Part shown: positions 5,605-31,400 of the stretch, in pieces
Numbering within the stretch: position 1 is the first letter of the stretch
Layout: each line of letters opens with the position of its first letter
Source: Pseudoalteromonas tetraodonis
GTDB taxonomy: Bacteria > Pseudomonadota > Gammaproteobacteria > Enterobacterales > Alteromonadaceae
Length of the DNA: 32,000 nt
Direction: 5' to 3'
Assembly (NCBI RefSeq): GCF_002310835.1
Contig: NZ_CP011041.1
Coordinates: 1,290,001 to 1,322,000, forward strand
Notes under the pieces: generated by a model
Database searches by the model: none
Told to the model about the DNA's origin: nothing
What the model saw: only the letters and a program-made list of their open reading frames with translations
Made by a program: the position numbers and the translations under genes

Positions 5605-5669
5605 TTCTTTACTGAATGGTTATAATCGGCGGATTTACGCAGCCTTACTTTTTATAAGTAAACCAGAGC

Positions 5670-7196: not shown

Positions 7197-7209
7197 TTAT
7201 TCTATATTA

Positions 7210-7233: not shown

Positions 7234-7382
7234 GTGCCTGTAATAAAGTTAAATCAATAGCTTAGCGTCTCATCACGTCCCATCTTGTTTCACCCAAGCT
7301 CAAAGCTTTAGTATCCAATATGGTATTCCTCTAATAAACTGCCATAATAAGGAATACTAAATTAAATTGGAGTTAATTTGTT

Positions 7383-8962: not shown

Positions 8963-9355
8963 ATGTTTATACAAAACCTCAACAAAGCTCAACAAGAAGT
9001 GCTTCTCAAGTTAGCCAACGACCTAATGATCTCTGATGGTGTTATAGATCAAAGCGAAGAAGAATTGATTAGCTTTATTAAATCTCAGTGTACCGAAGGT
9101 GTATCTGAATTAGAAATCTTCAATCTAAGCGAAATCAAAGATATCTTTGACAGTAAAAAAGCCAAAGTCTCGATGTTACTTGAGCTTATTGGATTAGCTC
9201 ACGCTGATGGGGATTACGGTAAAGAAGAAATGGTTTTTATCAATGAAATAGCTTCAGTACTAAACATAAATGAAGCTAATTTAAATGAGTTGGAAAATTG
9301 GGTTAGACGTCAACTCGATTTAGTGAACGACTCAGTTATGTTCATGGAGGAATAA
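8963..9355 (+). CDS. TerB-like (tellurite-resistance TerB / DjlA-N fold) small protein
   Basis: 130 aa with two copies of the TerB-type hairpin motif: LANDLMISDGVIDQSEEELISFI and LIGLAHADGDYGKEEMVFINEIASVL. AAGGAA RBS. The stop is 2 nt before the next ATG. Confidence 0.6.
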   Translation: MFIQNLNKAQQEVLLKLANDLMISDGVIDQSEEELISFIKSQCTEGVSELEIFNLSEIKDIFDSKKAKVSMLLELIGLAHADGDYGKEEMVFINEIASVLNINEANLNELENWVRRQLDLVNDSVMFMEE

Positions 9356-9357
9356 CT

Positions 9358-10854: not shown

Positions 10855-10860
10855 CCTGTT

Positions 10861-10897
10861 ATTCGAGGGGGATACTGACCACCTCGAATCTTTTAAA
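10861..10897 (+). terminator. Hairpin, possible weak terminator or attenuator between genes 2 and 3 of module A
   Basis: ATTCGAGG (10861-10868) pairs with CCTCGAAT (10882-10889) around a 13-nt loop, followed by CTTTTAAA. Confidence 0.35.
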
Positions 10898-10922
10898 TAT
10901 ATTATCGAGCAATAAGCAGCTT

Positions 10923-14458: not shown

Positions 14459-16438
14459 ATGAATAAAGCTGAAGTGCACCGCAAAAAAGTTCAAGAAATC
14501 CTCGACGGCAATACTTTACATGGTCACCAAGTGAGTGCTGCCACAAAAACATTTAATGCATTCTCTAATGATGTGAGAGCTGTAGTAACAGCAGCTGAAA
14601 TGCAAGCTGGTAAATCTGGAATAGCGTTAGCTTTGTGTTGTTTGCAGCGTTTAAGCCTTGATGATGAAACAATTTGCCAAAAGCGCTCACTTAAAGACAC
14701 ATTATACTTAGTTACAATGCCAGATACGGCTTTGAGAGATCAAGCAGAAGATGATTTAAGACTTGCAAAGAATGTGGTTGTTAGTAACTTTGTTAATTTC
14801 GAAAAAGCCTTAGAAACAGATTTTAAAGGTAACCCTCCTAAATTAATCATCATCGACGAATGCCATTATGGTTCTAATGTTACCGGTATCCGATATAGCT
14901 CTGTGTTTGACTATCTAGAACAAGAAAATGACTCTTGCAAAGTAGTGTTTATCTCTGCGACACCTTTTGGCGCTCTATATGGTGCAGAAACAGAGTACGA
15001 AGAAGCGCTAGAGGCTAGTTCTGAAGCTGAGGAAGAGCATAACGACAAGCTGTTAAAAGAATCAACTCAAGCGGCGAGTCAAGCGCTTAAAGACTCTATT
15101 TTACGTCGTGATTTTGGTACTCGGTTGGTTTTTCATAAAACGAGTGATGAATACTACGGCGTACGGGAGATGCTAAAAAACAATCGCTTACACAATTTAA
15201 ATGACGAAGAAAGGAACTTCCTGGTTGACTCTGTACACCGCAAAAACTTTATGCAGCAATTCAATACTCATGAAGGCATGGGCTGGTCATTAGTTAGAGT
15301 TCCAGCAGGGACAGCAATGGATGCAAAGCAGTTCTTCATATCTGAAGGTGTTGATGAGGAAAATATTTATATACTAGGAAATTCACTTTCTGGAGTGCCA
15401 GAAGATGAGCTATCTACTATTGATAGGTTTAAAAAAGCATTTGAAGACAGTGAATTGTTTGGAGAAAAGTTAGTCGCGATTACAGTTGCAGGTTGCCGAG
15501 CAGGAATAAACTTCGGCAATTTAATGAAGAATAACCTTATTTCTACTTGGGATAGCACAGTTGCAAGTGTTGCTGCTGTTGTACAGGCTAATGTAGGTCG
15601 TGCGTGTGGGTATCACGGTAATAATACTTCAATGCACTTTACAAATGGGAATGCAGCTGAAGCCTATGGCGCTATATTGGATTACCTAGAACGCACATGC
15701 TCCGATCATGCTGCGTCTGATTTTGATGGCTTAAGAGAGTTTTTTGAAGACGTATGCCAAGAGTACCAAGTAAATGGTTTGGATGTAGGTTTAACAATAA
15801 AATATAAAAGGCGTAGGCCCATAGGTGATGTTGAAACATTCGAAACAGATCACTATGTAGCAGTACCAGCAAGGCTCCTGGACCAAGACTACGACTTTTC
15901 CCAGCATACCCAAGATAAGCTTCTTTTAAGTGCTATAACGGTCTTACGGGAAGAGTTTATTAAAAATGGAGCGCCGTCGGTAAAAGGTAGCAGAGCCATG
16001 CGAGGTAAAAAGAAAAACTGGATAAAAGCCCAGTGGGTTAATGGTGATAGCTATGATAATCCAGAAAAAGCTGGTGTAGACGGCCCTCAAAAAGATAGAA
16101 CAATAATGCTTACCAGCATGTTAGATAATGATGAATATGTTGAGTTTAATAGAGTCGTAGCCCCAGGCTCTGGGGAATTAACTGAGAATAAGTCAGTTAC
16201 AGCAACGGTGTTTAGCGTTTACAACATATCAAGACGTAAAGTGTCTAAAACAATAATGACGGAAAAAGATGTATGGGACATGTGTGATTATTTTGATATC
16301 CCTCATGACGATACTCTATTTGTATTATACAAGCGTGGTGAGTACGACTTTGATAGAACGTTAGCAAAAAAATCCCACAATGAGTTACCTGAAAAGTCAG
16401 GTACATTGAGTGACGAATCACAGTTTTCGGTTAAATGA
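14459..16438 (+). CDS. SF2 helicase-like ATPase, paralog 1 (DEAD/DEAH-type core + unknown C-terminal domain)
   Basis: 659 aa. Motif I is AEMQAGKSG (GKS at 14609-14617), motif II IIIDECHYG (DECH at 14855-14866), motif III FISATPF. Motif V/VI-like strings are AITVAGCRAGINFG and VQANVGRACGYH. AAGGAG RBS. Confidence 0.8.
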   Translation: MNKAEVHRKKVQEILDGNTLHGHQVSAATKTFNAFSNDVRAVVTAAEMQAGKSGIALALCCLQRLSLDDETICQKRSLKDTLYLVTMPDTALRDQAEDDLRLAKNVVVSNFVNFEKALETDFKGNPPKLIIIDECHYGSNVTGIRYSSVFDYLEQENDSCKVVFISATPFGALYGAETEYEEALEASSEAEEEHNDKLLKESTQAASQALKDSILRRDFGTRLVFHKTSDEYYGVREMLKNNRLHNLNDEERNFLVDSVHRKNFMQQFNTHEGMGWSLVRVPAGTAMDAKQFFISEGVDEENIYILGNSLSGVPEDELSTIDRFKKAFEDSELFGEKLVAITVAGCRAGINFGNLMKNNLISTWDSTVASVAAVVQANVGRACGYHGNNTSMHFTNGNAAEAYGAILDYLERTCSDHAASDFDGLREFFEDVCQEYQVNGLDVGLTIKYKRRRPIGDVETFETDHYVAVPARLLDQDYDFSQHTQDKLLLSAITVLREEFIKNGAPSVKGSRAMRGKKKNWIKAQWVNGDSYDNPEKAGVDGPQKDRTIMLTSMLDNDEYVEFNRVVAPGSGELTENKSVTATVFSVYNISRRKVSKTIMTEKDVWDMCDYFDIPHDDTLFVLYKRGEYDFDRTLAKKSHNELPEKSGTLSDESQFSVK

Positions 16439-16442
16439 GTCT

Positions 16443-18302
16443 ATGAATCAAGCAGAAAAGCACAGAGAGTATCTAGAGAAAATAGTATCTAGTGATACTT
16501 TCGAACATCAACAGCATGCTGCACAAAGAGCATTTAGCCATTTTGAAGAAGGTAGTCGTGCTGTTGTAATAACTGCTGAAATGCAATCAGGGAAGTCTGG
16601 TATTGCATTAGCATTAGCTGCTTTACAAAGACTTAGTCTATCAGATACAGATATTTGTGATCGCTCAAAATTAAAAGATACACTTTATTTAGTCACCATG
16701 GCTGATTTGTCGCTACAAGAGCAGGCCAAGCAAGATCTTACCAAATGTAATAATGTTGTTGTGAGTAACTTTACTAATATGAGTCTCGCACTCTCAAGTA
16801 ACTTTAAAGCCCAACCGCCTAAGCTCATTATCATAGATGAATGTCACTATGGTGCAGGTGCTGAGGCCGTTAGATATGCTAAAGTTTTTGAGTATCTGGA
16901 AAAAGAAAACACAAACTGTAAAGTTGCTTTTATTTCAGCCACACCTTTTAGCGCGCTTTACTCAGCAGGCGCAGAGTCTATTCTTCGTCACGACTTCAAA
17001 ACCAGTCTTGTTTTTCATAAAGCAAGTGATGAGTATTTGGGCATCAGGGAGATGCACCGCAACAACCAAATAGTAAAGTTAGCAGAAGAACAGCGTAACT
17101 TTTGTGATGACTCTTTACTACGTAAGCGTTTTATAAGGCAGTTCAAAGAGCACCGCTCATCTGGCTGGTCACTAATAAGGGTGCCAAGTAGTCAGGCAAG
17201 CCTAGCAAAAAGTATCTTATTAGAGAACGGTATAGCTGAAGAGCAAATTATGGTTATTGGCCAAAAGCTGGTGGGAGTTGAGGAAAGTGACTTAGCAAGT
17301 ATTGACGATTTTAAACGTGAATATGAAGCAGCAGCAATGTTTGACGATAAAGTCATTGCAATTACTGTTGCGGGCTTTAGAGCTGGCATTAATTTTGGTC
17401 AAGAAATGAAGAGTACGCTCATTAATACCTGGGATAGCACAATTGCTAATATAGCTGCAATTGTCCAGGCCAATATCGGGCGTGCTTGTGGCTATCACTG
17501 TAATGCGCAGGCCAAACACTATACTAACCTTGATGCTATTAAAGCTTACAGCGACTTACTTAATCACCTTGAATTAAATAGTGATAAAAGCGACTTCGAA
17601 GGTTTACATGCAGTTTTTGAAGATATTTGCGCTAAATATGATGTAAGAGGTTTTGATAGAGGGATTCAAATCTCACCAAATAAGGAATATACCACTTCTT
17701 CTCGGAAGAAAGATGATACTCAAACATATTTAACCCAAAGTTATTTATCGGTTCCAGGTAAGTTAACTACACCGAACTACGATTACTCAAAATACACCCA
17801 AAATCCTTTATTACTTGAGGCTATTGATCTGATCAGGGCAGAGTTATTAAAAGATGATGGCCCACACCGAAAGCAGGGTAGAGCCCTTAAAGGTGAAAAT
17901 CAAAATTGGATCAAAGCGCAATGGGTAAACGGTGTTACCTATGATGATTACACTCCAAGCTGTGCAAAAAGCAGAGCAATAGAATTCACTTCATTATTAG
18001 GTCAAGACCATCCATTAGAATTCAATAAAGTAGTTAACCCCGGTGGTGGAGAGACGACAAAAGATAAACGCGTTATGGCAAGTGTGTTTAGTGTATATAA
18101 CCTGTCTAAAAAAACTGATGCGTTTAAGCGTTCTATGGATGATGACGATTTGCAAGAGGTAAGTGAGCTATTGGGCGTTGAACTTGACGATACAATAATT
18201 TTATTGTTTTTACGCGGTGAATATTCTGATGATTTAACAGTAGCAAAAGAAGAGCAATCAAAATTAGTAGCGTCGAATCTTAAAGATAAATCTATATTTT
18301 GA
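16443..18302 (+). CDS. SF2 helicase-like ATPase, paralog 2
   Basis: 619 aa from the ATG at 16443, which is 4 nt after the paralog-1 stop. The N-terminus MNQAEKHREYLEKIV aligns with MNKAEVHRKKVQEIL of paralog 1. It has the same GKS (16590-16598), DECH, SAT and QANIGRACGYH motifs and is collinear over its full length. Confidence 0.8.
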   Translation: MNQAEKHREYLEKIVSSDTFEHQQHAAQRAFSHFEEGSRAVVITAEMQSGKSGIALALAALQRLSLSDTDICDRSKLKDTLYLVTMADLSLQEQAKQDLTKCNNVVVSNFTNMSLALSSNFKAQPPKLIIIDECHYGAGAEAVRYAKVFEYLEKENTNCKVAFISATPFSALYSAGAESILRHDFKTSLVFHKASDEYLGIREMHRNNQIVKLAEEQRNFCDDSLLRKRFIRQFKEHRSSGWSLIRVPSSQASLAKSILLENGIAEEQIMVIGQKLVGVEESDLASIDDFKREYEAAAMFDDKVIAITVAGFRAGINFGQEMKSTLINTWDSTIANIAAIVQANIGRACGYHCNAQAKHYTNLDAIKAYSDLLNHLELNSDKSDFEGLHAVFEDICAKYDVRGFDRGIQISPNKEYTTSSRKKDDTQTYLTQSYLSVPGKLTTPNYDYSKYTQNPLLLEAIDLIRAELLKDDGPHRKQGRALKGENQNWIKAQWVNGVTYDDYTPSCAKSRAIEFTSLLGQDHPLEFNKVVNPGGGETTKDKRVMASVFSVYNLSKKTDAFKRSMDDDDLQEVSELLGVELDDTIILLFLRGEYSDDLTVAKEEQSKLVASNLKDKSIF

Positions 18303-18381: not shown

Positions 18382-20400
18382 ATGGATGAAAAAACGTTAA
18401 GCTTTATTGAGAAGGCACAGTCAGTTCATGGAGATACTTATTCTTATAATAAATCCATTTATACCGGTAGTAATATAAAATTAACTATTACTTGCAAGCA
18501 CCATGGTGACTTTGAACAAACACCATCAAACCATTTCAAATATCATTGTTCTAAATGCTCAAAAGGGGCTCAAAATAAAGCTAAATTAGAGAAGGCTTCT
18601 GCAGTATACTTAGATAAGGTCATAGCTGTTCATCACGATAAATATGACTTATCAAAAGTAAACTATACAGGGGCCAAAAATAAAGTAACAGTAGCGTGTC
18701 TAGAGCATGGCTTATTTGAAATAACAGCTCAGCACTTTTTAGCTGGTAGTGGGTGTAAACAATGTGGAAATAAAAATACAAGATTAAAAACTATCGATAC
18801 AGCTTCTAAATCTTTTGAATCAAAGGCTAGAAAGATCCATGGGGATATGTTTGATTATAGTAAAGTAAACTACAAGGGGACCACTACAAAGGTTACAATA
18901 ACCTGCCCAGAGCATGGGGATTATATGCAAACACCTCGCAAACACCTAGAGGGTTCAGGTTGCCATAAGTGCGCAATAGATAACTCTGTTTCAAGGCTGT
19001 CTACCAGTGTATTTATAGAAAGAGCAAAAATAGTACATAAAAATAAGTACAACTATGCAAAAACTCAATTTACTAAGTCACATGAAGGTATAATTATCAC
19101 CTGTGAAGAACATGGTGATTTTTCACAAAATCCACATAATCACTTAGCTGGCGCGGGTTGCAAACTCTGTGCTAATGAAAAAATAACCTACACTACAGCT
19201 GAATTCATAGACCGAGCCAATAAGAAGCATAGCTCTTACTACTCATATGAAAAAACAGAGTATGTTGCGTCAAAAGTTAAAGTATTAATTACATGTCCTA
19301 CTCATGGCTTATTTTATCAGAAACCAATACTACATTTACAAGGTTATGGGTGTAATCGTTGTGCGGCTATTAAACGTGGTAAAGACAGCAGCTCATCAAC
19401 CGCTGAATTTATACAATACGCAAATTTCATACATGATTTTAAATGGAATTATGACAAAACAAAATATATAAATAACCATACAAAAGTAATAATAACCTGT
19501 GATACGCATGGTGACTTTGAGCAAACACCTGGAAGCCATAAAAGTGGCAAAGGTTGCCCTAAATGCGGAATTATTAAGTCTACTGAGTCTGGAAAGGTAA
19601 AATATGAAGAGTTTTTATTAAGAGCTCAAAATGTTCATGGTGACAAGTATTTGTATGACTTAGTTAAATATTCTACATACGGTGAAAAGGTTAGTATAAA
19701 GTGCTTACTGCATGGTGTTTTTAATCAATCACCGACTTCACATATTAGAGGAGCAGGGTGCCCAACATGTGGTTTAGAGTCTTCTAGAGAAAAACAGAGA
19801 ATTCCATATAACGTCATACTAAAGAAAGCAAACGAAGTCCATAACTTCAAATATAGTTATGCTGAATGTAGTGATGAAAATTCAGAACGTAAATTACTCG
19901 TCTATTGTCCGGTACATGGAAAATTTGAACAGAAAATTGATGCTCACCTTAAAGGAATCGGTTGCCCAAAATGCAGTTGCATTAAGCGTAATATGCAGAC
20001 AGAAGAATTTATAGACAGAGCTAATGCAATACATAGAGGAAAATATGGCTATGAGTATGTTGACTGTAATGGCACTAAAAGAATACTAAAAATTGAATGC
20101 TATAAGCATGGTATATTTGAGCAAGTAGCTTCTCAACATTTAAAAGGCAGCGGTTGCAGAGACTGCTATGTGGATTCAACAAAACTTACCCTAGAAAATT
20201 ACCTTAAAGATTGTAAAAAATTACATGGTGATAAATATGGCTATTCTAAATTAGAATATAATACTATCAGAGACAAGGTCATTATTACTTGTCATACCCA
20301 TGGTGATTTCCTCCAAACAGCTCATGATCATAAACATGGCGGAGGGTGCCCCAAATGTGCTGAATATTTTAGAAATTTAGACAATAAAGACCCTGATACT
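18382..20400 (+). repeat. Ten tandem coding repeats (64-75 aa each) inside the zinc-ribbon/nuclease gene
   Basis: Repeat boundaries by residue are 1-75, 76-144, 145-210, 211-274, 275-342, 343-410, 411-478, 479-542, 543-606 and 607-673. Each keeps the C-x2-H ... H-x4-C-x2-C ligand set. They are diverged at the nucleotide level. Confidence 0.85.
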
Positions 20401-20709
20401 CCTTGTCACATATATTATTTGCAACTAAAAACAGAGCACCTTATTTTTTATAAAGTAGGCATAACAACGAAAAGCGTAGAAGAACGTTTTTATCGTTTGA
20501 AGAAAGATAATACCAAAATTTTGGATCAACTTAGTGCCCTGACAACTCTTGATAAAGCCATTGTTGCCGAACAAACCATATTAGAAGAGTTTGAAGAACA
20601 TAAACTCTTAATGTCAGATACTTTGGTGTTAAGTGGAGGTGGAACCGAGTGTTTTGCTGATGATGTATTAGGGATGCATGGCTTAGAATTAGAAGACTAC
20701 ATTACCTAG
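18382..20709 (+). CDS. Protein of ten zinc-ribbon repeats fused to a C-terminal T5orf172/GIY-YIG-like nuclease domain
   Basis: 775 aa. Residues 1-673 are ten modules with the pattern F(I/L)xxAxxxHGxKYxYxxxxYxxxxxKVxIxCxxHGxFxQxPxxHLxGxGCPxC. Residues 674-775 read PCHIYYLQLKTEHLIFYKVGITTKSVEERFYRL...AEQTILEEF...GGGTECF, which is GIY/YIG-R-E-like. AAAGGA RBS. Confidence 0.8.
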   Translation: MDEKTLSFIEKAQSVHGDTYSYNKSIYTGSNIKLTITCKHHGDFEQTPSNHFKYHCSKCSKGAQNKAKLEKASAVYLDKVIAVHHDKYDLSKVNYTGAKNKVTVACLEHGLFEITAQHFLAGSGCKQCGNKNTRLKTIDTASKSFESKARKIHGDMFDYSKVNYKGTTTKVTITCPEHGDYMQTPRKHLEGSGCHKCAIDNSVSRLSTSVFIERAKIVHKNKYNYAKTQFTKSHEGIIITCEEHGDFSQNPHNHLAGAGCKLCANEKITYTTAEFIDRANKKHSSYYSYEKTEYVASKVKVLITCPTHGLFYQKPILHLQGYGCNRCAAIKRGKDSSSSTAEFIQYANFIHDFKWNYDKTKYINNHTKVIITCDTHGDFEQTPGSHKSGKGCPKCGIIKSTESGKVKYEEFLLRAQNVHGDKYLYDLVKYSTYGEKVSIKCLLHGVFNQSPTSHIRGAGCPTCGLESSREKQRIPYNVILKKANEVHNFKYSYAECSDENSERKLLVYCPVHGKFEQKIDAHLKGIGCPKCSCIKRNMQTEEFIDRANAIHRGKYGYEYVDCNGTKRILKIECYKHGIFEQVASQHLKGSGCRDCYVDSTKLTLENYLKDCKKLHGDKYGYSKLEYNTIRDKVIITCHTHGDFLQTAHDHKHGGGCPKCAEYFRNLDNKDPDTPCHIYYLQLKTEHLIFYKVGITTKSVEERFYRLKKDNTKILDQLSALTTLDKAIVAEQTILEEFEEHKLLMSDTLVLSGGGTECFADDVLGMHGLELEDYIT

Positions 20710-20952: not shown

Positions 20953-21669
20953 TTATGTTGAATTACCTATACCGGCTATACGCTCTAAGGACGCGCGATT
21001 ATACTTTTTGCCAAGTAGAGCGTCAATATCACTTACATTAAAGTAAGGCTTTTCTTTTGTTCCATCAAGGTTTTTTTCCATAAAAATAATATCTATATCA
21101 TCCTTGAAAATATTTTTTAATTCGCTGACCACACGTTGAGACTCTAAGAACTGATTTACAAAAACCTCAGGTGGAACCCTTCTTCCTTCAACTATTTCGC
21201 GAGCCTTTACTAAGCACCAAGCTTGTTCGGGATCTTGATAAACAAATATAACCAAAACGTAGCGATCTTTACGTAAAGAACGTTCAATATTCGACTTTGC
21301 CTTTTCAAAACTTGAAAGCGTAGAGTCGAGTAAAAAACTAACCTTTTTCTTTAAAGCTCTGTCATGTATTGCTTCCACTAAAATAGTTGCAGGTGTTTGA
21401 AATAGCGGAGAGTTTAACCCCTGGTAGTCATCAAACTCCTTTCTTAGTTCATCATTTTCTATGTGAACAACATCAACCCCATGCTCTTTTTTAAATTGCG
21501 AAATAATACTTTTAGCAGTCTCTGTTTTTCCTGCACCAGGGGAGCCCGCCATAAAAACAGATACAGCACTTTCTTCTTCTGGCAAATGATCAATCATACT
21601 TTTGGCAAGGGTTTTCTTCATTGCTTTAGCTTTAACTAGCGCTTTTTTTGTAATTTCTTCATCTGTCAT
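20953..21669 (-). CDS. Zeta-toxin-family P-loop kinase-like protein
   Basis: 238 aa. Walker A is FMAGSPGAGKTE, followed by VVHIENDELRKEF (the zeta/PezT-type D-x-x-R region). The size and layout are typical of the zeta toxin domain. Confidence 0.7.
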   Translation of the reverse strand: MTDEEITKKALVKAKAMKKTLAKSMIDHLPEEESAVSVFMAGSPGAGKTETAKSIISQFKKEHGVDVVHIENDELRKEFDDYQGLNSPLFQTPATILVEAIHDRALKKKVSFLLDSTLSSFEKAKSNIERSLRKDRYVLVIFVYQDPEQAWCLVKAREIVEGRRVPPEVFVNQFLESQRVVSELKNIFKDDIDIIFMEKNLDGTKEKPYFNVSDIDALLGKKYNRASLERIAGIGNST

Positions 21670-21702
21670 AATGTATCAAATTTAAGGTTAATTCACATAA
21701 AT

Positions 21703-21723
21703 AAAGGGGTTAAAAACCCCTTT
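21703..21723 (-). terminator. Hairpin terminator candidate after the TPR gene
   Basis: AAAGGGG (21703-21709) pairs with CCCCTTT (21717-21723). On the minus strand it is followed by ATTTATGTG. It lies 40 nt downstream of the stop at 21764. Confidence 0.5.
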
Positions 21724-21763
21724 AAATCCAGTAGTATACTAAAGATCACTTTACATTTTTGGC

Positions 21764-22984
21764 TTAGGTCATCCCCCAAAACTCAGATTTAATATCATCA
21801 GCATTATTGTTTTTATATATGTTTTCACTTATCAAGTAAGCTTGAGATTGATTGTTATTAACCATAAAGTGCTTATCATTCTTTTTATAAAGCTTAAATG
21901 CATAGTGGTATTGGCTTGAATATGTCGCAGTAGCTGAAAATACATTGGTGATATTATTTTTCGCTATAAATTGAAAAATAGCTTGAGCGACATAGTTTAA
22001 TCTTTCATCCCGGCCCATATTCATTGTAAACATTGAATGCGAACCTTGATCATCAAATGCAACAAATATCTCAATGACTTCATTTGAATCTTTAAAGATA
22101 AAGTTAACTACTCTACCGTCTAGCTTCATATCACCATCGTTATCAATTTCATATAGGTGGGAGGTTTCATTATTAACATACATAACCTCACCATTTTTAA
22201 CGATAAACATTATATCGACTTCAGCTTCTACTAGCCTCATTCCACCATTGTAATTGATCTTCTGATTGCTAATTTTATTAACGGTCTTAGAAGACTTGCT
22301 TATTGAAATTAATTTATTAAGTATTTTTGTTCTAATTTCAAACATTTTCTGCGGGTCACGGCTGAAGCAACAAAGAATGCCTTTAAAAAAGACAAAAGCC
22401 TGTTGAGTACTACTAGTTTCAGTAACATTTACAAACTCAGAATGATCAATACCGCAATTTAAAGCATACTCTTGGTGTACTCCACCCATTTCTTCAAGCT
22501 CTTTTATCTCCTCATTCACAAAGTGCTTAATAGCATTAAAATCGTTTTTTAAATGTGTATTACTTAAAACTTCAGCCCAGCGAGTTGTAAAATGCTCGAA
22601 GCCATCACTCGCTAGTTGCCCTCTAATTTTATCGCCATTTTGTTCTTCAAAGCTCAGAAATAGCTTTATTCGCTCTAGGTTTTGTAAAGCCATCGGAGAT
22701 GCATGCCCATCATCGAGAGATTGCTTCTTTTGTTCCATATTTATAACTTTAAGGTAATCATCATATGCCTCGAGATATCTCTCTTGAATCGCATAGCAGT
22801 TAGCTCTATTTAAATATACGTTTGAATGGTTTGGGCTGACTTCAAGTGATTTTGTAAAGAATAAAATAGCGTCATCTTGATTGCCATATTGATGATACTG
22901 AAGTGCTTGGCGAAAGAATTGTTCACCTTGGGCTTCTGCCTTAGGGTCCGTTTTAATTCTTGAGAAAAAGCTAAATAGAGACAT
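21764..22984 (-). CDS. TPR-repeat protein with uncharacterised C-terminal domain
   Basis: 406 aa. The N-terminus FFRQALQYHQYGNQDDAILFFTKSLEVSPNHSNVYLNRANCYAIQERYLEAYDDYLKVI is 2-3 TPR units; the remainder is unrecognised. An AAGGAA RBS lies in the 25-nt gap after the upstream gene. Confidence 0.7.
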   Translation of the reverse strand: MSLFSFFSRIKTDPKAEAQGEQFFRQALQYHQYGNQDDAILFFTKSLEVSPNHSNVYLNRANCYAIQERYLEAYDDYLKVINMEQKKQSLDDGHASPMALQNLERIKLFLSFEEQNGDKIRGQLASDGFEHFTTRWAEVLSNTHLKNDFNAIKHFVNEEIKELEEMGGVHQEYALNCGIDHSEFVNVTETSSTQQAFVFFKGILCCFSRDPQKMFEIRTKILNKLISISKSSKTVNKISNQKINYNGGMRLVEAEVDIMFIVKNGEVMYVNNETSHLYEIDNDGDMKLDGRVVNFIFKDSNEVIEIFVAFDDQGSHSMFTMNMGRDERLNYVAQAIFQFIAKNNITNVFSATATYSSQYHYAFKLYKKNDKHFMVNNNQSQAYLISENIYKNNNADDIKSEFWGMT

Positions 22985-23009
22985 ATTATTTCCTTATAAT
23001 AAGGTTGAG

Positions 23010-23915
23010 CTAAAAGCAGTGCGAAAGAGCATACTGTCGATTGTGAAAGTAAGTATTATTGATTTTAAAATCGGTATTTGCTAATAACTCGCTAGGTTTA
23101 TCCAAATATATTGATTGGATATATTCTTTTGGAATATGACTATTAACGAGAATTTCGGCTTGTGAGTCAGTAGGGTCACAAGCTCGTAAATTGATAGGTT
23201 GATTATTAAAAAGCTGTTTTAATGCCACACTTCCTGAAAGGGATGCCTCAGTTGCTGATGCTATAGAAGAGCTAGCAGCATTTGCGGGGCAAAATAAGCA
23301 GTCAAGCTCCCATAAAACACGGGCAGATATTTCTAACACAGCCCAGCTTTCTTCTGGTTGTGCTTGTCTATACTTATAAAACATCTTGTCGTTAGGGTAG
23401 GACACAGATAACGAAATCATGTGAGTTCTGTAGTCAAATCGATTAGCATCGTTGTAAATATGACCTTTAGATATTTCGTTATTATAATCTTTACTATTAA
23501 GGCCTATATCCAAAATGCTTTTAAGGTTTTTCACTTTTGTAAAGTGTATTAATGTAGTAATTCCACGCTCGCTACAAAATTGCTTAATAAGCTCTTTATC
23601 ATCAATATTCGCATATTTACCTAATCCATAATGCTTCATTACGGCATCAATTAATTCAAGACGTAATGAAATAGTATTTTGATAGCTGCCTAAGTCAGCT
23701 ATTAAAGTTGAAAACAGAATGTTAGGGCTATTTAACTCCAGCAGTGGCATCTCAGTCTTTAGTTTTACACCACTGGATTTAGCAAAATTACGAACCAGGA
23801 GAGAGCTTTTGTTAGCGAAAGATAATTCATTTACTACAAATTCAGCTGCAATAGCTGGAGTAGGTAAAAGGGCTAATGTCTTGTTTAACATTGGCTCAAA
23901 CATATTAATTTCCAT
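23010..23915 (-). CDS. DarT (DUF4433)-like ADP-ribosyltransferase domain protein with ~115-aa N-terminal extension
   Basis: 301 aa. The ordered motifs are LIHFTKVKNLKSILDIGL, MISLSVSYPNDKMFY, WAVLEIS...CLFCPANAAS and DPTDSQAEILVNSHIPKEYIQSIYL. These correspond to the H-x-T..NL.SIL, (F/Y)-rich, NA and QAE-x-LV motifs of DarT. Its ATG abuts the upstream TAA. Confidence 0.65.
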   Translation of the reverse strand: MEINMFEPMLNKTLALLPTPAIAAEFVVNELSFANKSSLLVRNFAKSSGVKLKTEMPLLELNSPNILFSTLIADLGSYQNTISLRLELIDAVMKHYGLGKYANIDDKELIKQFCSERGITTLIHFTKVKNLKSILDIGLNSKDYNNEISKGHIYNDANRFDYRTHMISLSVSYPNDKMFYKYRQAQPEESWAVLEISARVLWELDCLFCPANAASSSIASATEASLSGSVALKQLFNNQPINLRACDPTDSQAEILVNSHIPKEYIQSIYLDKPSELLANTDFKINNTYFHNRQYALSHCF

Positions 23916-24605
23916 TTAAATAAATAAATCCTTTTGTACAGGGGAGGCGCAACTTCCGATGCTTTGGCTTAAGTGAGCTATAAACTCATCAGCAGAGCGA
24001 GTAACTTGTTCTAAAGTGCCATTCTTGACTAAAGAAACATATAAAGCAGCTGCTCTAGCCTGGCAATTAACGCTTTTTTTAGGGTTAAATTCAATATCAG
24101 TAAACGCATTATATTGAATAATTTGAGAGTGTAGTTCTTTGTTTAATTTTAAAGCATTAATGTAAATCCAATCATAAAATACAGTTTTAGGTGTGAGTGG
24201 CCAGGTTTTTCCATTACTAAAAAAGCCAGTTAAACAGCCGCTCTCAACTAAACGGCTATCTCGTTTAACTTCATGTGTCGGAATTGTTAGAAGCTCTTTA
24301 AAAGGGCCGCCATTTTCAAACACTTTAGATGCATGAAAAATATTCTCCAGTGGAACTTCGCGACCATTTTTTAATGTAACGATCAAATTGAAAGCACTTA
24401 GGCTTATACCCAAGGTACTCTCACTTTTTGTAGAGATCTCAAGTACATTTAAATCATTAAACAAGTTATGCGCAGCGTTATGTAAAGAGCGAACAGATTT
24501 TTGCTTTTGTGTGGCTGCCATTCCTTTATGCCATTCAAAGTCAATAAGCTCTTCCTGTACATAAGGAAACGGCTTAATCACTTTAAAAACGGGTCTAGTA
24601 GCCAC
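23916..24605 (-). CDS. Hypothetical 229-aa protein, candidate partner or antitoxin of the DarT-like protein
   Basis: A GTG start at 24603-24605, 10 nt after the pglZ stop. No macrodomain-like motifs are visible. The string LSAFNLIVTLKNGREVPLENIFHASKVF is only faintly NADAR-like. It is tightly coupled to the downstream gene. Confidence 0.6.
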   Translation of the reverse strand: MATRPVFKVIKPFPYVQEELIDFEWHKGMAATQKQKSVRSLHNAAHNLFNDLNVLEISTKSESTLGISLSAFNLIVTLKNGREVPLENIFHASKVFENGGPFKELLTIPTHEVKRDSRLVESGCLTGFFSNGKTWPLTPKTVFYDWIYINALKLNKELHSQIIQYNAFTDIEFNPKKSVNCQARAAALYVSLVKNGTLEQVTRSADEFIAHLSQSIGSCASPVQKDLFI

Positions 24606-24615
24606 TTAATCAACC

Positions 24616-26670
24616 TTAGGGTGTTGTTATGTTAATTACGGGGGTTAAGCACTCTTGTATGCTTAAGCCACCATGGTTGTAATAATCACCAGCCACATAA
24701 CCTGCAATACCAGGAGCCATGGCTACAGAGACGTTTTCGTTCCAATGCCATGGTACTTTTAATTCGTCAGTGCTTACATTGTCTTTTAAAATAGCACAGC
24801 GGGCTAAGCGTTTTTTAACCTGATTTTTTGGAATGTTTGCTTCAGCTAATTTACCTGGCACCCATAACCAACCGTGGTCGGTCACAATGCGTATATTTTT
24901 CCAGCCAGCAGCTATTAAGCCTTCAATACGGGTGACTACATCATTTAAGACGCTATCAATATAGCGCGGCATTTTTAGCTGTTGCTTATGCCCCATATTG
25001 TCTAAATCGCCAGTTTGCAGCCATGCATTTATAGATGGGTTGCCAGTATCTAACTCTTTTAAAAACTGCCAATCTTTTTTTCCTAATGCACTACTTAAGT
25101 GATAAGAGCTAAACTCAGAGCCAGACTCGGTTATCTGGGGAATAAAGTTATCGTTTTCTTGAGCGCCACTTAAAATATCGGCCACAGGCGTTACGGCAGC
25201 CTTAGCAGTTGCTGTTAATGAGGGCAGGGCACACCAATTACTTGTTAAATTAACATTTATGTTTAATTTACTAAGCTTATTCTCAAGCATTTTTGCAGTA
25301 TCAAAACGTAGTCCATCAACAAAAAACACAGCTTGGCCGTTGGTGTTATACGTTGCGGTCGACTCATTTATTTCACCGGCACTACTTGGTTTACCTGGGT
25401 AGCCTTCGTCCTTTACTAAGCGTTGAAAGTTCAACGTAACAGCTTCAAGCCAGGGGGTATAAATTACTGCCAGAATATCAGCAACTACTTGCTCCTGGTT
25501 TAAATCAGTAGCAGCAGCCATTGCGTTAATTGCTGCCGCATCTGCTTGCCAGAACCGCTCTTTGTAGGTTTGTGCCATTGCTTCTGCATTTGGGCCTGTA
25601 AAATTAATCTGAGTATGTTTAGCAACGTATTCTAGTTGCTCTAATATATTTAGCCAAGGCGACATACCTAGCTTTTGCCACAGCCAGTTTTTACGCTGTT
25701 CATGTAATTTATACAAGGCAGTTAACTGCTGCCTTAGCTCGGTTGGCGTTACACTGATAATGCTAGCTAATTTATTTGCTAATTCAGCTTCATCTTTTAA
25801 ATTTTCAGATAAAAAATGGCTAGCCTCAAACGCTAAACCAGTAGGAGCTATAGTTTTAAGCTTTTCAACTAAACAAGGTAGATTGTGTGCGGTGTCTTTA
25901 AATCGCTCCCAAACAGTATACCATTCGCCTTCAGCCTCACATAAGCTGTAGATAATAGCGCTTATATCGCTTATATCATCAGGGTCAAAGTTAAATTGGC
26001 TTATACAGGCTTGTTTAAATACAGGCCATTTATTTTCATCCCAAGCTTGCTTTTTTGCTTCGGGGTTATTTAACCAAGCTAGAATATCTTTAGCCGGGTC
26101 ATCCATTACAATGCTTATAAAGTCTTGGGCTTCTAGCTTTTTACCTTTTAATTGCTCAGCTGGCGTTTCAAGTAAATCGGGTAGAATATTGAGTATGGCT
26201 TCTTGCGTTTTTTTGTCTTTGGCAACATCAAGCTCTAATCCCACACGCGGGTTTGTTAAAAATGAGCCAACACTCCAATCCCTACCTGCAGAGTTGTAAG
26301 CCCACCAGCAGCCTCTGTATTGCAATTCGGCTAAAGGTCTTAATTCATCAGGGCATTGCTCTATTGCACGTAAGTCTTTGCGGCCAACACCTGGTAAATA
26401 AATTATCGGGGTTTTATCTTTTGTTAATTCACAGTCTTCCAATACCCCAGCTATCGCACATTTAATCCAAATAGCAGGGCCTATGCGCTCCTCTGGACAA
26501 TAAGTTCCTAGCTCAATGAGCTCAGGTAAATGTTGTTTTATAAACGGCATAGCAGGTTGCCACTGGCATTCAATATCAGTCCACAAAATAGCAGCAGGTG
26601 CAACTTGCACCGCTGAATTATAGGTTGCTGAGCTTCGCAGTTGCGAAGCTAGGTAATCAATTAATTGCAT
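24616..26670 (-). CDS. pglZ: BREX PglZ (alkaline-phosphatase superfamily)
   Basis: 684 aa. FFVDGLRFD (25300-25326) and IVTDHGW are the PglZ-domain metal-site motifs. The N-terminal AILWTD...WQP region and the position downstream of pglX fit BREX. Confidence 0.85.
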   Translation of the reverse strand: MQLIDYLASQLRSSATYNSAVQVAPAAILWTDIECQWQPAMPFIKQHLPELIELGTYCPEERIGPAIWIKCAIAGVLEDCELTKDKTPIIYLPGVGRKDLRAIEQCPDELRPLAELQYRGCWWAYNSAGRDWSVGSFLTNPRVGLELDVAKDKKTQEAILNILPDLLETPAEQLKGKKLEAQDFISIVMDDPAKDILAWLNNPEAKKQAWDENKWPVFKQACISQFNFDPDDISDISAIIYSLCEAEGEWYTVWERFKDTAHNLPCLVEKLKTIAPTGLAFEASHFLSENLKDEAELANKLASIISVTPTELRQQLTALYKLHEQRKNWLWQKLGMSPWLNILEQLEYVAKHTQINFTGPNAEAMAQTYKERFWQADAAAINAMAAATDLNQEQVVADILAVIYTPWLEAVTLNFQRLVKDEGYPGKPSSAGEINESTATYNTNGQAVFFVDGLRFDTAKMLENKLSKLNINVNLTSNWCALPSLTATAKAAVTPVADILSGAQENDNFIPQITESGSEFSSYHLSSALGKKDWQFLKELDTGNPSINAWLQTGDLDNMGHKQQLKMPRYIDSVLNDVVTRIEGLIAAGWKNIRIVTDHGWLWVPGKLAEANIPKNQVKKRLARCAILKDNVSTDELKVPWHWNENVSVAMAPGIAGYVAGDYYNHGGLSIQECLTPVINITTP

Positions 26671-26679: not shown

Positions 26680-28470
26680 TCAAATACTAGGTAATTTAAA
26701 GAGCTCAACTACTTTAGATACTAAAAGTTCTGTTCTATTTTTGATTTTATCAACAGACCAGCTGGTTTCCGAAGCTAATTTACTATTTAGATACAGACCG
26801 TTTTTATATCCAACCGGGTTGCCTTTCCGATTTGTTCTATCACGTTTCTCTTCGAAGCTCTTATTACCTAATGTGCTGTTGTAGCCTGAAATTGTAAGAT
26901 TCCCTAAATAGTGAACATATTGTTGTTTGTATGTTTGGGCTAGTTCTTTGTCACCATTAGCTATCATATTAACCCAAGACTCAGGTATGTTGTCACCCTG
27001 CGGGAATATATGTTCAATTGTCCAAACATATTGTTTGCCCTCAATTGCCCATAAATTAACGGTTGATTCCCTTGTCATTACACTCTCTTCAATGGCACAA
27101 AGAGCAAAACGACATACCGCTTTATTATCATCATATAGGTTGCCAGATAGCCCTTTAATAAAGTCTTCATCTGATGCACTTACATTTACTAATGACTTAC
27201 AAATAAGGTCATAAATCGCATCACCTTTTAGCTTTGTAGCCTCATCAGAGAGGGACATAAATATTTTTGTTAAATCTCTCGTGGCAGGTGTATCTGTAGT
27301 ATTCCTACGCACAAAAAAAGCAATTAACAAAGTAACAATTTTTTCAAAATGTTCTGATTTCAACTCTAGTGTTTCTTGTTTACTAAACAGTAGGAGTAAT
27401 AATAGATACGATGGAACACCCTGAATGTTTTCTAAGCTAGACAGCAGTCCTGTTAATTTAGGGTTATCCGGAACTTCTTTATTGCCAATAATTTGCGCGT
27501 ACAAATTAGCATGCACCATCATTGTTTTTAAGAAACTGCTAGCATCATTGGCGATCAGTTTTTCGTAAATATGAATAAGGTTAGATTTAGTCGCAACAGG
27601 AACACTAACAATATGCTTTAATTCAGGTTTAAATGCATTGTAGTACTGCCTAAAATATCGTTCTTGTATTCCATAATCATCACCAAGATAAGCTAATACT
27701 TTCATCCAATTATTAAAGTGCTTATCTATTTGCCCTGCATCATCCGACTCAAGTTTTGCCAACAACTTGTTTTTTATTAAATCAATAGCAGTAAGTGGTA
27801 CCCCTCTGTTATTCAAAGATTCAAACAAAGTATATGCATCAGAATGACTAGCCACTTCAATTTTCACTAAGGTGGCTGTATTTACTTTATCTATTAACTC
27901 AGAAAGCGCTGCAAGCTGATCGGTAGCTTGATATAAAACGTCGTCTATCCTTCTACAAAAATGTCTAAAAGCTCGCAATACACGTCGATTTCCAGCATTT
28001 GAGATATGTTCAGCATTTTCTAAAATACCGGCTTGTTTAAGCACCCAAAAATAATCCTGTTGATTGTTATTTTGAACTTGAGGCGTTAGACGAGTCAGCT
28101 CTGGGGAGTTTTTTAATATTAGTTTATTTTTTAAGTTATAAAGTTCTATCTGTTGCGGCATATCGAGAGTTAACTCTAAGTTGCCATAACACTTGTAGAT
28201 AGCTGCCATTAACAAAGATAAAGTAGTCATTCTTTGCTGGCCATCTACTAATTCTAGTTCCTGGATCTTTAATGAATCTAAACTTTGATTTATGCAGATA
28301 ATAGAACCTAAAAAGTAGCTTGGATCATTTTCAAGTAAGTCTTCAAAAAGAGTATCCCATTGTATTTTCCCCCATGTATATTCACGTTGATACCTAGGGA
28401 TGTTATATACAACCGCTGCTTCAATATTAAATAAAGTCGAAACAGGGTAGTTATCAACGGACTTAATCAT
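26680..28470 (-). CDS. brxU: GmrSD-family type IV restriction-like enzyme (DUF262 + DUF1524), BrxU-like
   Basis: The N-terminal DUF262/ParB-like strings are IPRYQREYTWG, FLGSII and VDGQQR (28231-28245). The C-terminal His-Me finger is WTIEHIFPQ...YLGNLTISGYNSTLGNKSFEEK. The ATG at 28468-28470 overlaps the pglX stop by 8 nt (ATGATTAA); the track start at 28503 is an alternative. Confidence 0.8.
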   Translation of the reverse strand: MIKSVDNYPVSTLFNIEAAVVYNIPRYQREYTWGKIQWDTLFEDLLENDPSYFLGSIICINQSLDSLKIQELELVDGQQRMTTLSLLMAAIYKCYGNLELTLDMPQQIELYNLKNKLILKNSPELTRLTPQVQNNNQQDYFWVLKQAGILENAEHISNAGNRRVLRAFRHFCRRIDDVLYQATDQLAALSELIDKVNTATLVKIEVASHSDAYTLFESLNNRGVPLTAIDLIKNKLLAKLESDDAGQIDKHFNNWMKVLAYLGDDYGIQERYFRQYYNAFKPELKHIVSVPVATKSNLIHIYEKLIANDASSFLKTMMVHANLYAQIIGNKEVPDNPKLTGLLSSLENIQGVPSYLLLLLLFSKQETLELKSEHFEKIVTLLIAFFVRRNTTDTPATRDLTKIFMSLSDEATKLKGDAIYDLICKSLVNVSASDEDFIKGLSGNLYDDNKAVCRFALCAIEESVMTRESTVNLWAIEGKQYVWTIEHIFPQGDNIPESWVNMIANGDKELAQTYKQQYVHYLGNLTISGYNSTLGNKSFEEKRDRTNRKGNPVGYKNGLYLNSKLASETSWSVDKIKNRTELLVSKVVELFKLPSI

Positions 28471-31400
28471 TTTTAGCTTCCTTTGCTGCTTTTTTCTCGG
28501 CAAGTGTTAGGTGATGGTCATTTATACGGTCGCCTTGCTTGCCGCCATATTCTAAGCCTAAGTCATACCAAGGAGCTGACGCTACATCGGTGCCGCGGTC
28601 TTTTTTCCAGTGAATATTGGGTTTTGAACGCAAAATGCCAGCGTCTTTTTTACCTACATCTTTCGTTTTCATGAATGGGCGAATGTTCAGACGAACACCG
28701 TCATTTAAGTCTGGGTTCCAGCCGATAGGTTGCTCTGCTAGCGGCTTCCAGCGAACAAAGATATCCAGGCCTTCTTCACCAACCAAAATACTTTCAAGCT
28801 GTTTTCTTAGGTTTCTAGCGGCAGCTAAACGTATTTCAGCGCCTTCATCGCCATCTTTTTCTAATTGAATCTGGGTGCTAATCCAGTCATCAAGGTAGGT
28901 GTAAATTAAACGCTCTAAACCTTTATAATCGAGCATGTGATAATTTACTAATGCAGAAAACCCATCGGGTAAGCCATCCCATATTTGCCAAATGAATGGG
29001 CGATGTTGAAATAGTTTAGAATGTTGTTCGAAAAATTTATCACGTAGCCAAATGTTTAAGTCGCGAGACTTAACGGACTTCAATAAATTATTTAAGACGG
29101 TAGCAGACCATTTATCGCCATAGGCTGCATGCAAAATGGCTTCTAATCTATCAACCGCTGGTTTTTCACCGCGTATTGCAGGAATACAAACAATACCGTC
29201 ATCATCGATCAAACCATCAAACACATTGTTTTGGGCTATGACTTCACGCATTTCAGGTGCTAATTCTATTTCCGTGTCCAGCTCCGCTGGCCATCGGTAA
29301 CCTAATAGGCGAGCAACAGCGATTTGCAGAACGGTCTCGTCTACACGTAGCTCATTTATCGCTGTTGTTTTTGTTTCTTCATCCCAAATTACAGAAGCAC
29401 AAGGGTGTCCGTGAAAAATCCATTGAGTGGAGTCACTACTAAACGGCTGAGATAAAATACTATCATTGAGTACTTTAGCTTGCTCATTCCAGTGCTTTTT
29501 GTCGAAAGGAACTTTTAACAAGGTTGCATTTGTTACACTTCTTTTTTTGTCTAGTTTTCTGACATTTGTGATGTATGTGTTGCTTCCACAATAAGCTAAT
29601 AATGCGTCTAAGTCATTTTCATTTTTAGGAAAAATAACACTAACGCTGGCATCAAACTTAGATCCGCAATAGGCTGAGGTATTTAAACCTTGTTCATTAA
29701 TAATAATGCCTTTACTGTCCCACGCTAGATTCCCAGATTCATGCATATCATGCAGTTTATGTCTATTCTCTCTAGCATATTTAGCGAGCTTTCCATGTCC
29801 TTGCTCCCAATAAATTACATCAAACATTCCTCCCCACGTATCACTTTTTGCATTTGGTGTTCTTAGATAGTCCCAACAAGTAGCATTAATGTCCACCTCC
29901 CAGGTTTTTCTGACAAATTGATCTTTGTCACCAGTTCGAAGTCCTTGATAGCAAAAAGCGTCGTCAGAAAGTGGGCTTGACGAGTCAACAGGCTCATACA
30001 TTATTCTAGAATCAGGATTTCCAACTTGTTCTGATTGTGACAATAGCTTAATTACATTTTGTTTTAAGCTATTCTTTTTTGAGTCTATTACTTGTTCCGG
30101 GGAAACATCAAAGGCCGCTAGCTTACCATCATTATTACTACTATTAGCTAGAGAAATTAATATGGGTGAAACTCCTATTGGTGTTTCAAATGACTTGTCT
30201 CCTAGCCAAGCTAAAACGTCGATACTCACCTGATTTAGTAATTGATTTCTAAAATCAGTGTAACTAGTTAAGAATAACCAATTTTGAGGTAAAACTAGAG
30301 AAACGACTCCATTACTTTTTGAAAACTTAAGGCAACGCGAAATAAAAACAGTCTCTAACGCACTTTTTTCTTTTTTGTAATATTTTTCGATAAAGTCTTG
30401 AAGAAATTGACAAAGCTCTCCTTTAGTTTTGTAGGGAGGGTTTGTTGATATTAAATCATAAGCCTTTGTTAGTACTTCTGCGGCTTTAATTAGCCCATTC
30501 GCAGTTGCTTTAGCATCATTACTGACTTTGGTGTGGTTAGTGACTGCTGCTTGTAGTAAAGACCACGGTTGTGTACTTTCATTTTCCGAAGTTGGTTTTG
30601 GTTTTATCAAACTACCAAGGCTAGGCGCATTTTTAAATGTTTCTTGCATCCAATTAATAGCACTTTTAAGCTCATCATTGTCTTTCGCTACGTCTTTCCA
30701 TTCTTTTTGGGCTTCACTAATAGACAAACCTGAACAAGCAACTTGTAACTCAGGCAATTGACGGTAACCACCAGAATTAGGATAACGCCAAGCTTCAAGC
30801 GCTAAAGCAAATGCCGCTAATTCTACACAGCGTTGGTCGAGTTCTAAACCATGAATATTTTGAGCTAGTACTTTATCAATTGCTTCTTTTGCAGTTAGCT
30901 TCTCTAGCTCCATTCGTATTGGCACTAGCATTAAGAATTTGGCTACTAAAAAGTGGCCTGAACCACAACAGGGATCGAGAGCTTTAAATTCACTTAAATT
31001 ATCTGGCCATTTATCAAAATCACCTGCGGCACAACGCCATACTTTTGATTTTTCATCTTGAACAAAACGTAAATACTCAAGTGGTACGCCGGGAATAGAG
31101 GCTAGATCTCGCAGCTCTTGCTCGCTAGATGCAGTCGCTAGGTCATCTTGTGTTAAGCGTCGTTTAGCCCACCATGCGCCAAGGGCGTTGTCGAGTAAAA
31201 AGCTCACCATATAAGGTTCGGTGAATAGCTGCGTCACCGGGCTTAGTTCTTTAGCGCCAATTTTTACGCCAGATTCGTTAACTTGTTTTTTCTTTTTGTT
31301 TTGCCAAAATTGATAACACCAACCAAGTGCGTCTGATGCTTGAAAGGTATCAGGGTGCAAGTTTGCAATGAGTTCTTCTAACGCTTGAACATGGTTTATC

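Follow-up and report, generated by a model that had tools for sequence, protein, structure and literature searches.

A three-gene DarTG1 variant, probably mobile cargo of a BREX-1 PglZ type B operon in Pseudoalteromonas tetraodonis

DarTG1 is a published family of toxin–antitoxin phage-defence systems that pairs a DarT1 toxin with a NADAR antitoxin. Canonical DarTG1 defends against phage by itself (PMC11543638 and PMC11257639, as cited there); published work points out that binding of NADAR to DarT1 has yet to be demonstrated. For BREX loci, Rakesh & Krishnan (2026; PMC12839542) proposed that 'auxiliary/backup effectors' are embedded in them, and found BrxL present in 76% of type-1 BREX and absent from 24%. 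Neither DarT nor NADAR is mentioned in that survey (0 mentions). Our own literature search, whose incomplete coverage makes it absence of evidence only, found no description of a DarT–NADAR–TPR trio, of DarTG1 inside BREX, or of recurrent fusion of such a trio to the pglZ gene of BREX-1 loci with a type B PglZ (BREX-1B). Here we describe a locus with these features in a 32,000-nt window of the Pseudoalteromonas tetraodonis genome (assembly GCF_002310835.1, contig NZ_CP011041.1, forward-strand positions 1,290,001 to 1,322,000; all coordinates for this locus count from the first letter of the window). Positions 21764-24605 hold three minus-strand genes, for a NADAR protein, a DarT protein and a TPR protein, directly downstream of pglZ. 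We read them, with a probability of about 75%, as a three-gene variant of DarTG1, a toxin–antitoxin or abortive phage-defence module that forms self-contained mobile cargo of a BREX-1B slot. Comparison loci are numbered L001 onwards.

The middle open reading frame (ORF) of the trio (23010-23915, minus strand) encodes a 301-aa protein whose residues 110-301 (23010-23588) form a DarT1-type ADP-ribosyltransferase (ART) domain. It matches Pfam PF14487 (DarT/DUF4433) with E=1.3e-18 over aa 124-274, and its closest solved relative by sequence is the guanine-specific DarT1 of E. coli C7 (8baq, E=3.7e-29). An AlphaFold2 (AF2) model of the protein (pLDDT 87.9, pTM 0.84) aligns with 8baq in Foldseek at E=6e-17, TMt 0.85 and a root-mean-square deviation of 1.8 Å, whereas its matches to DarT2 structures are far poorer (E ~1e-4 to 1e-5, TMt ~0.3-0.57). 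Profile, sequence and fold searches therefore agree on the ART fold, bearing out the suggestion of a first-pass annotation, made from the letters of the window, that this is a DarT/DUF4433 protein with a QAE motif. This motif, Q252-A253-E254, does not vary among homologues. We then projected the 8baq sequence alignment onto the residues described in PMC11543638. All 17 of the 17 mapped NAD+-binding, catalytic and guanine-coordinating residues of DarT1 are kept, and most are invariant across homologues; in C7/window numbering they are H17/H124, F18/F125, T19/T126, S26/S133, N48/N155, D49/D156, R52/R159, D54/D161, S63/S170, M71/M178, F72/F179, Y73/Y180, K74/K181, Y75/Y182, N104/N212, Q150/Q252 and E152/E254. 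With the active site fully retained, the 301-aa protein should use NAD+ to add ADP-ribose to guanine N2 in single-stranded DNA (ssDNA), which would block replication and transcription.

The upstream gene (23916-24605, minus strand, 229 aa) encodes a NADAR antitoxin, a DarG1-type guanine-ADP-ribose glycohydrolase. It matches Pfam PF22397, 'DarT1-associated NADAR antitoxin', with E=2.1e-85 across profile positions 1-210 of 212, and the structure of the G. lovleyi NADAR (8bat) with E=9.2e-63. The protein carries the DarT1-associated N-terminal extension, and is 49-51% identical to the DarT1-associated NADARs of plasmids. Mutagenesis of the E. coli C7 NADAR identified E88, K95, K115 and D171 as needed (PMC11543638); all four are conserved here, as E87, K94, K114 and D170. 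The first-pass annotation had called this protein unknown, had treated the antitoxin as non-canonical and had distrusted a faint NADAR-like string, PLENIFHASKVF; the string in fact holds the catalytic residues E87 and K94, and the idea of an unknown antitoxin was dropped at the first Pfam scan in favour of a canonical DarT1-associated NADAR. None of the three trio proteins has a Pfam Macro match. Homology also backs the GTG start, as orthologues begin M-A-(L/S)-R-P with ATG at the aligned codon. We take the 229-aa protein to be the cognate NADAR glycohydrolase of the DarT1, predicted to hydrolyse the guanine ADP-ribose mark and thereby to keep the cell alive. Identification of a DarT1 domain beside a DarT1-associated NADAR places the pair in DarTG1. 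PADLOC detects only DarT among the three, weakly (E=3e-9), and gives NADAR no match.

Two further features set this DarTG1 apart, and the first-pass annotation passed over both as the unusual part of the module. One is the N-terminal region of the toxin, which that annotation did register as an extra ~115 aa. This region is real: it comprises about 109 residues (aa 1-109; 23589-23915, minus strand) and forms a clade-specific helical domain, recognized from homologue conservation and the AF2 model, in which helices 6-96 are predicted at high pLDDT. Some 27 homologues of ~300 aa, at identities as low as 41%, share it, with the motif EFVxNELSFANKSSLxVRNFAKSSG…LDSPN and, among long-form DarT proteins, the invariant residues F26, E30, F44, R85, M93, G99 and Y101. 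Its ratio of non-synonymous to synonymous substitution rates (dN/dS), 0.24, indicates purifying selection. A shorter DarT beginning at Met93 was rejected because residues 1-109 are conserved in homologues and have this low ratio. An exhaustive phmmer search of 1.84 billion representative proteins returned the domain in only six clusters, four of ~300-aa DarT proteins and two of short fragments; it is confined to a small, mostly marine gammaproteobacterial DarT clade. We found no relatives of it in Pfam (nothing credible at E≤10) or the PDB, and Foldseek against PDB and BFVD gave DarT matches only.

The second feature is the third gene (21764-22984, minus strand), which encodes a 406-aa TPR partner. 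A 406-aa TPR protein had been proposed from the letters, and TPR repeats are indeed present (Pfam TPR_1/TPR_2 at aa 23-85), but they are limited to aa 23-103. The architecture comprises TPR repeats (aa ~14-105), a helical middle domain (~106-235) and an α/β C-domain (~240-403), in line with an AF2 model (pLDDT 86.9) that has helices at 14-230 and an α/β region at 249-403. For the C-domain, no recognizable family was found in Pfam (E≤10) or the PDB, and Foldseek against PDB and BFVD, aimed at a fold for the middle and C-domains, gave generic TPR matches only. One profile match of the C-domain in the PDB, a 27-residue β-hairpin motif in designed 'Cake' propellers, was judged a repeat artefact.

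Wherever the sequence extends far enough downstream, the long-form DarT is directly followed by a TPR-family gene: the window, L001, L003, L011-14, L015-16, L018-20, L024, L026-28, L031-34, L036 and L037. In a V. harveyi assembly (L017) the gene called after the long-form DarT is shorter (346 aa) and has no TPR match. The module of TPR repeats plus middle domain accompanies long-form DarT over DarT identities of 35-96%. As a reference we used 73 canonical short DarT1 loci from metagenomes. There the order is DarT then NADAR in 59/73 and NADAR then DarT in 1/73; of the remainder, 11/73 have no NADAR (mostly on short contigs), one has it on the opposite strand and one gave no match. No homologue of the TPR partner occurs in any of the 73. 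The annotated plasmid DarT1 examples L029 and L030 also have DarT ahead of NADAR. We observed that the canonical-order DarT1 of L029 (3204-4094; V. parahaemolyticus pVPH2) is annotated with a different N-terminal extension, which includes a (VEP)n low-complexity repeat and a hydrophobic leader and is unrelated to the N-terminal domain of the window protein.

Could the TPR gene be an unrelated hitch-hiker beside a two-gene DarTG1, with the N-terminal extension of DarT a lineage decoration? The gene lies 13-30 nt from darT across loci and has its own ribosome-binding site (RBS), and neither Pfam nor Foldseek revealed a sequence- or fold-based tie between the TPR protein and ADP-ribosylation, all of which would suit a hitch-hiker. 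Yet TPR repeats and middle domain accompany the long-form toxin in all loci with enough flank, the shorter call in L017 aside, and this includes L037, where no NADAR was detected in the 1.6 kb upstream, and the four-gene loci L026 and L036. The partner's absence from all canonical loci and its own dN/dS of 0.16 argue the same way, and we give the hitch-hiker explanation hardly any credence. The dN/dS values of the three genes, and of the toxin's N-terminal domain, lie within 0.13-0.24, which indicates purifying selection, NADAR being lowest (0.13 against the sister locus L001).

Around this constant association the partner itself varies. In the Shewanella locus L024 a leucine-rich-repeat (LRR) block is inserted, giving 601 aa, and in L026 and L036 the partner has a different C-terminus, and the C-domain is encoded by a 176-aa ORF of its own. 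The middle domain has a dS of 1.2 between the window and L001, against 0.13-0.3 in neighbouring sequence, from which exchange of the middle domain by recombination follows. At L037 (1609-3340) we observed a distant long-form DarT (311 aa, 35% identity) followed by a 260-aa protein made of TPR and middle domain only; no NADAR was detectable in the 1.6 kb upstream of DarT. L037 may represent a variant without NADAR that leaves restraint of the toxin to the TPR protein alone; it may also be incomplete or decayed. In L022 (6001-7442), a 304-aa protein consists of middle and C-domain without TPR repeats and its gene is immediately followed by a small HEPN-domain gene, suggesting that this part of the partner can pair with a different toxin type.

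We next consider how the trio is joined to its host operon. Re-reading the sequence bore out the ORFs, coordinates, spacings and signals that the first-pass annotation had listed. The pglZ stop and the NADAR start are separated by 10 nt (24606-24615, minus strand), which form the upstream cargo boundary; the NADAR stop abuts the DarT ATG (TAAATG at 23913-23918); and the gap between DarT and the TPR gene is 25 nt, with an AAGGAA RBS inside. Scanning the minus strand from the pglZ stop to 21724 gave no terminator-like hairpin. The first such site downstream of pglZ is an intrinsic-terminator-like hairpin after the TPR stop (21702-21724, minus strand), with a 10-bp stem, four GC pairs and a T-run, which closes the transcription unit from pglX to the TPR gene. 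With the short spacer and no earlier hairpin, the proposal of a DarT toxin–antitoxin or abortive module embedded in a BREX operon stands. A promoter scan was uninformative (26 sites versus 30.8 expected). Elsewhere the trio has an upstream region of 125-600 nt, whereas in BREX-embedded copies the gap after pglZ is 10-31 nt; because that upstream region is missing here, transcription by read-through from pglX-brxU-pglZ is most likely.

The upstream genes of the operon are those of a type 1 BREX system. pglZ (24616-26670, minus strand) is a full-length gene of the BREX-1 'type B' kind: its 684-aa product matches NF033450 (BREX_PglZ_1_B) with E=3e-262 over positions 2-675 of 675, and PADLOC PglZ with E=6e-258. 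Truncation of pglZ by the insertion was rejected on this full-length match. Upstream of it lie a GmrSD/BrxU-like type IV restriction enzyme (26680-28503, minus strand; GmrSD_N E=1.6e-34, GmrSD_C E=4.3e-17), in a cargo slot between pglX and pglZ, and the BREX methyltransferase gene pglX (28463-31873, minus strand; 1136 aa, PADLOC PglX 1558 bits, Eco57I and N6_Mtase domains). Only 127 nt of the window lie upstream of the pglX start; in the sister locus L001, whose PglZ is 95% identical, the order is WYL-BrxA-BrxB-BrxC-PglX-PglZ. Window and L001 share only 69% identity in PglX (6591-10001 in L001), whereas PglZ, NADAR, DarT and the Zeta-like kinase discussed below are 92-96% identical, which indicates recombinational replacement of this methyltransferase/specificity gene.

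Relatives of this PglZ (51-95% identity) were examined in ten genome loci, several metagenome loci and Aeromonas, the last an unannotated plasmid record mapped by BLAST. They share a common layout: WYL regulator-BrxA-BrxB-BrxC-PglX, a first slot, PglZ, a second slot, and then a convergent pair of helicase-like genes. GmrSD/BrxU occupies the first slot in the window and in L033; in L003-7 and L010-14 that slot contains a pair made of an AAA_21/AAA_15 ATPase and DUF4276. L111 has an equivalent slot, and in L001, L002, L031 and L032 the slot is empty. The second slot, between pglZ and the helicase-like pair, is more varied. It contains the trio in L003/L034, L011, L012-14 and L033; the trio with a Zeta-like kinase in the window, L001 and L032 (in the window and L001 together with a 775-aa protein); and the trio at a contig end in L031. 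In L004, L008 and L009 the Zeta-like kinase stands alone, in L005 there is an MqsA-like gene, in L007 a Sacsin/NOV_C protein with a NERD-UvrD helicase, in L111 insertion sequence (IS) elements, and in L002 and L006 nothing. The trio is missing from L002, L004-L009 and L111, and thus does not occur throughout this BREX subtype.

The first-pass annotation had placed the trio in the brxL position and had offered it as an alternative BREX effector. Domain scans confirm its observation that the window has no Lon-like BrxL ORF downstream of pglZ, or indeed anywhere. The same holds for the ±10-kb flanks of L001-L009 and L111, and for the available sequence of the PglZ type B loci L001-L009, L011-14, L031-34 and L111, whether or not the trio is present. 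With brxL not found on either side of this division and with variable cargo in the slot, the trio does not replace BrxL. Among these BREX-1B loci in which no brxL was found, several carry the trio and others have an empty slot or other cargo.

The trio also lives apart from BREX, and this tells further against the alternative-effector proposal. We found it complete in at least five non-BREX contexts. Chromosomal copies without BREX include two V. vulnificus neighbourhoods and V. harveyi; one copy sits beside TniQ/TnsD (Tn7-like genes), and the Shewanella copy with the LRR-inserted partner adjoins a RecD2-like helicase. An Aliivibrio copy lies 2.3 kb from, yet outside, a canonical BREX. Between traN and ssb-bet-exo, a hotspot of SXT/R391-type integrative and conjugative elements (ICEs), we observed a four-gene version (L026-L028, 4397-7690; L036), composed of NADAR, a 298-aa DarT, a 376-aa TPR protein and a 176-aa ORF homologous to the partner C-domain, with HipAB adjoining. 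We conclude that the trio is an autonomous mobile cassette and that it is accessory cargo in the slot 3' of pglZ.

BREX-embedded copies belong to two DarT clades that are ~62% identical (window/L001/L031/L032 versus L003/L011/L012/L033) and do not group together in a quick neighbour-joining tree, which may point to more than one capture, or to long residence combined with export. The same pattern could be read as integration. The trio might be a component of BREX-1B, its DarT1 an executing or back-up effector triggered by BREX itself; for example, DarT1 could attack ssDNA or nicked phage DNA laid bare by PglZ and the helicases, while NADAR protects self DNA and the TPR protein bridges BREX proteins. 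At least two divergent DarT clades show the tight fusion 10-31 nt after pglZ; of the long-form metagenome loci whose upstream flank is long enough, all four are embedded in BREX-1B; the Aliivibrio copy adjoins a canonical BREX; and auxiliary or back-up effectors have been proposed for BREX loci (PMC12839542). We nevertheless judge integration unlikely, since BREX-1B loci of the same architecture lack the trio or carry unrelated cargo (L002, L004-L009, L111), the non-BREX copies are complete and have their own upstream region, and canonical DarTG1 works alone (PMC11543638, PMC11257639).

Mobility raises another explanation, in which the cassette serves mainly as an addiction or stabilization module for the tRNA-Ser island or for mobile elements, has no dedicated antiviral role, and the TPR protein is only a transcriptional or proteostatic accessory. 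Toxin–antitoxin pairs classically stabilize mobile elements, and the trio rides an ICE hotspot, Tn7-like genes and integrative islands with integrase, relaxase or type IV coupling protein (T4CP) genes. Its neighbours, however, are almost all defence genes (BREX, GmrSD, PDC-M09, HipAB, a UvrD-like helicase), the cited literature establishes DarTG1 experimentally as phage defence, and swappable TPR and LRR modules suit recognition of diverse ligands better than housekeeping. A mainly stabilizing role is therefore very improbable in our view.

We favour the self-contained defence cassette, and propose for it the following mode of action. Beyond the predicted chemistry of toxin and antitoxin, the TPR and middle domains would dock on the DarT N-terminal domain, forming a regulatory or sensing layer. 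We infer this layer because co-occurrence is strict, partner modules vary (TPR repeats, LRR insertion, split or lost C-domain) and recombination has made the partner mosaic. The partner might keep DarT inactive, or might free it on a phage cue. The cassette would then be a second-line abortive back-up behind BREX and GmrSD, neither part of the BREX core nor a BrxL substitute. A more specific version, that the DarT N-terminal domain with its TPR or LRR partner is a dedicated infection sensor gating the toxin by ligand recognition and not by antitoxin decay, which would make the whole a three-component sensor–toxin–antitoxin system, and that the pglZ fusion could reflect BREX-1B coupling, is speculative and in our estimate rather doubtful. 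Under such coupling, the substrate of DarT1 could be ssDNA or nicked phage DNA produced by PglZ and the helicase-like pair.

Several points weigh against the self-contained cassette as we describe it. A promoter inside the 3' end of pglZ may drive the trio, a matter on which the promoter scan does not discriminate. Fusion to pglZ in two clades so far apart, together with the Aliivibrio copy near BREX, leaves room for some coupling to BREX. The activities of DarT and NADAR in this variant are predicted from residue conservation, and the part given to the TPR protein and the N-terminal domain is drawn from co-occurrence and architecture, with a C-domain that has no recognizable fold relatives.

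Beyond the terminator, the second slot continues with a separate cargo gene for a Zeta-toxin-like P-loop kinase (20953-21669, minus strand; 238 aa, Pfam Zeta_toxin E=1.4e-33). In L004, L008 and L009 only 9-10 nt separate the pglZ stop from the start of its orthologue, which makes the kinase a recurrent occupant of this slot; no epsilon-type antitoxin gene was seen near the window copy. The 775-aa protein (18382-20709, plus strand), in which repeated modules resembling zinc ribbons (DUF723, DUF4379) are joined to a C-terminal T5orf172 domain, was found only in the window and L001, between the helicase-like pair and the Zeta-like gene. The pair itself (14459-16438 and 16410-18302, plus strand, convergent on the BREX operon; 659 and 630 aa) is present in L001-L009, L011-14, L032-34 and L111, across PglZ identities of 51-95%. 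Its N-terminal regions give weak ResIII/DEAD and RadD-like matches; PADLOC gave no match, NCBIfam no identity and the PDB only a weak RadD match. An integrase gene lies within a few kb of the pair in most BREX-1B loci. The pair could be a functional BrxL substitute in the PglZ type B lineage, or island backbone.

All of this sits on a defence island whose left edge is marked by tRNA-Ser(GGA) (7107-7196) and a tyrosine integrase (7383-8624), together spanning 7107-8624 on the plus strand. GC content falls from ~0.40-0.43 outside to 0.32-0.39 inside. The island is packed with further defence candidates, among them the Zeta-like kinase, a TerB-like protein and PDC-M09A/B. The TerB-like protein (130 aa) opens the stretch 8963-12356 (plus strand) and is followed by the two PADLOC PDC-M09A/B candidates (E=3.6e-30 and 5.8e-19), a further putative defence module on the same island. 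Outside it, seven tandem tRNA-Lys(UUU) genes (4804-5745, plus strand) precede nadA.

Through its private N-terminal domain and an obligatory partner with swappable repeats, the window variant may give a concrete way into how toxins that ADP-ribosylate DNA can be regulated or triggered. The locus also defines a variable cargo slot 3' of pglZ, next to an invariant helicase-like pair, in a BREX-1 lineage in which brxL was not found. Such a definition is useful for defence annotation because PADLOC misses NADAR here.

Set beside described systems, the locus resembles type 1 BREX operons with embedded defence genes, such as BrxU/GmrSD in E. fergusonii pEFER, in carrying an extra defence module inside the operon. 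It differs in that the module is an ADP-ribosyltransferase toxin–antitoxin cassette and not a nuclease, and so adds a non-nuclease cassette to those known inside BREX operons; its host BREX, moreover, is of the PglZ type B lineage with the conserved convergent helicase-like pair. With DarTG1 (C7 DarT1, 8baq; G. lovleyi NADAR, 8bat; Schuller et al. 2023, PMC11543638) it shares the same two enzyme families, encoded by adjacent genes of one operon inside a defence island. In contrast to the canonical two-gene system with darT first, the window has the order NADAR, DarT, TPR; the canonical toxin is a single domain of ~210 aa, whereas this one has gained a helical N-terminal domain of ~109 aa; and the window form has an obligatory third gene, for a modular TPR protein. 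DarTG2, which combines DarT2 with the macrodomain protein DarG (Thermus, M. tuberculosis, enteropathogenic E. coli (EPEC)), is alike in using a DarT/DUF4433 ART on ssDNA whose mark is reversed by a glycohydrolase. Unlike it, the trio lacks a macrodomain, and its toxin matches DarT2 structures weakly and has the DarT1 serine, S170, in place of the tyrosine of the thymine-specific H-Y-E motif. Tripartite systems such as TAC (toxin–antitoxin–SecB-like chaperone) likewise have a dedicated third gene presumed to control toxin or antitoxin. The partner here, however, has TPR repeats and novel domains and neither a SecB-like nor any other chaperone fold, and the extra docking domain is apparently on the toxin and not on the antitoxin. 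Together, these comparisons place the locus in a known family, DarTG1, and point to the three-gene, reversed-order, N-terminally extended form as its unusual part.

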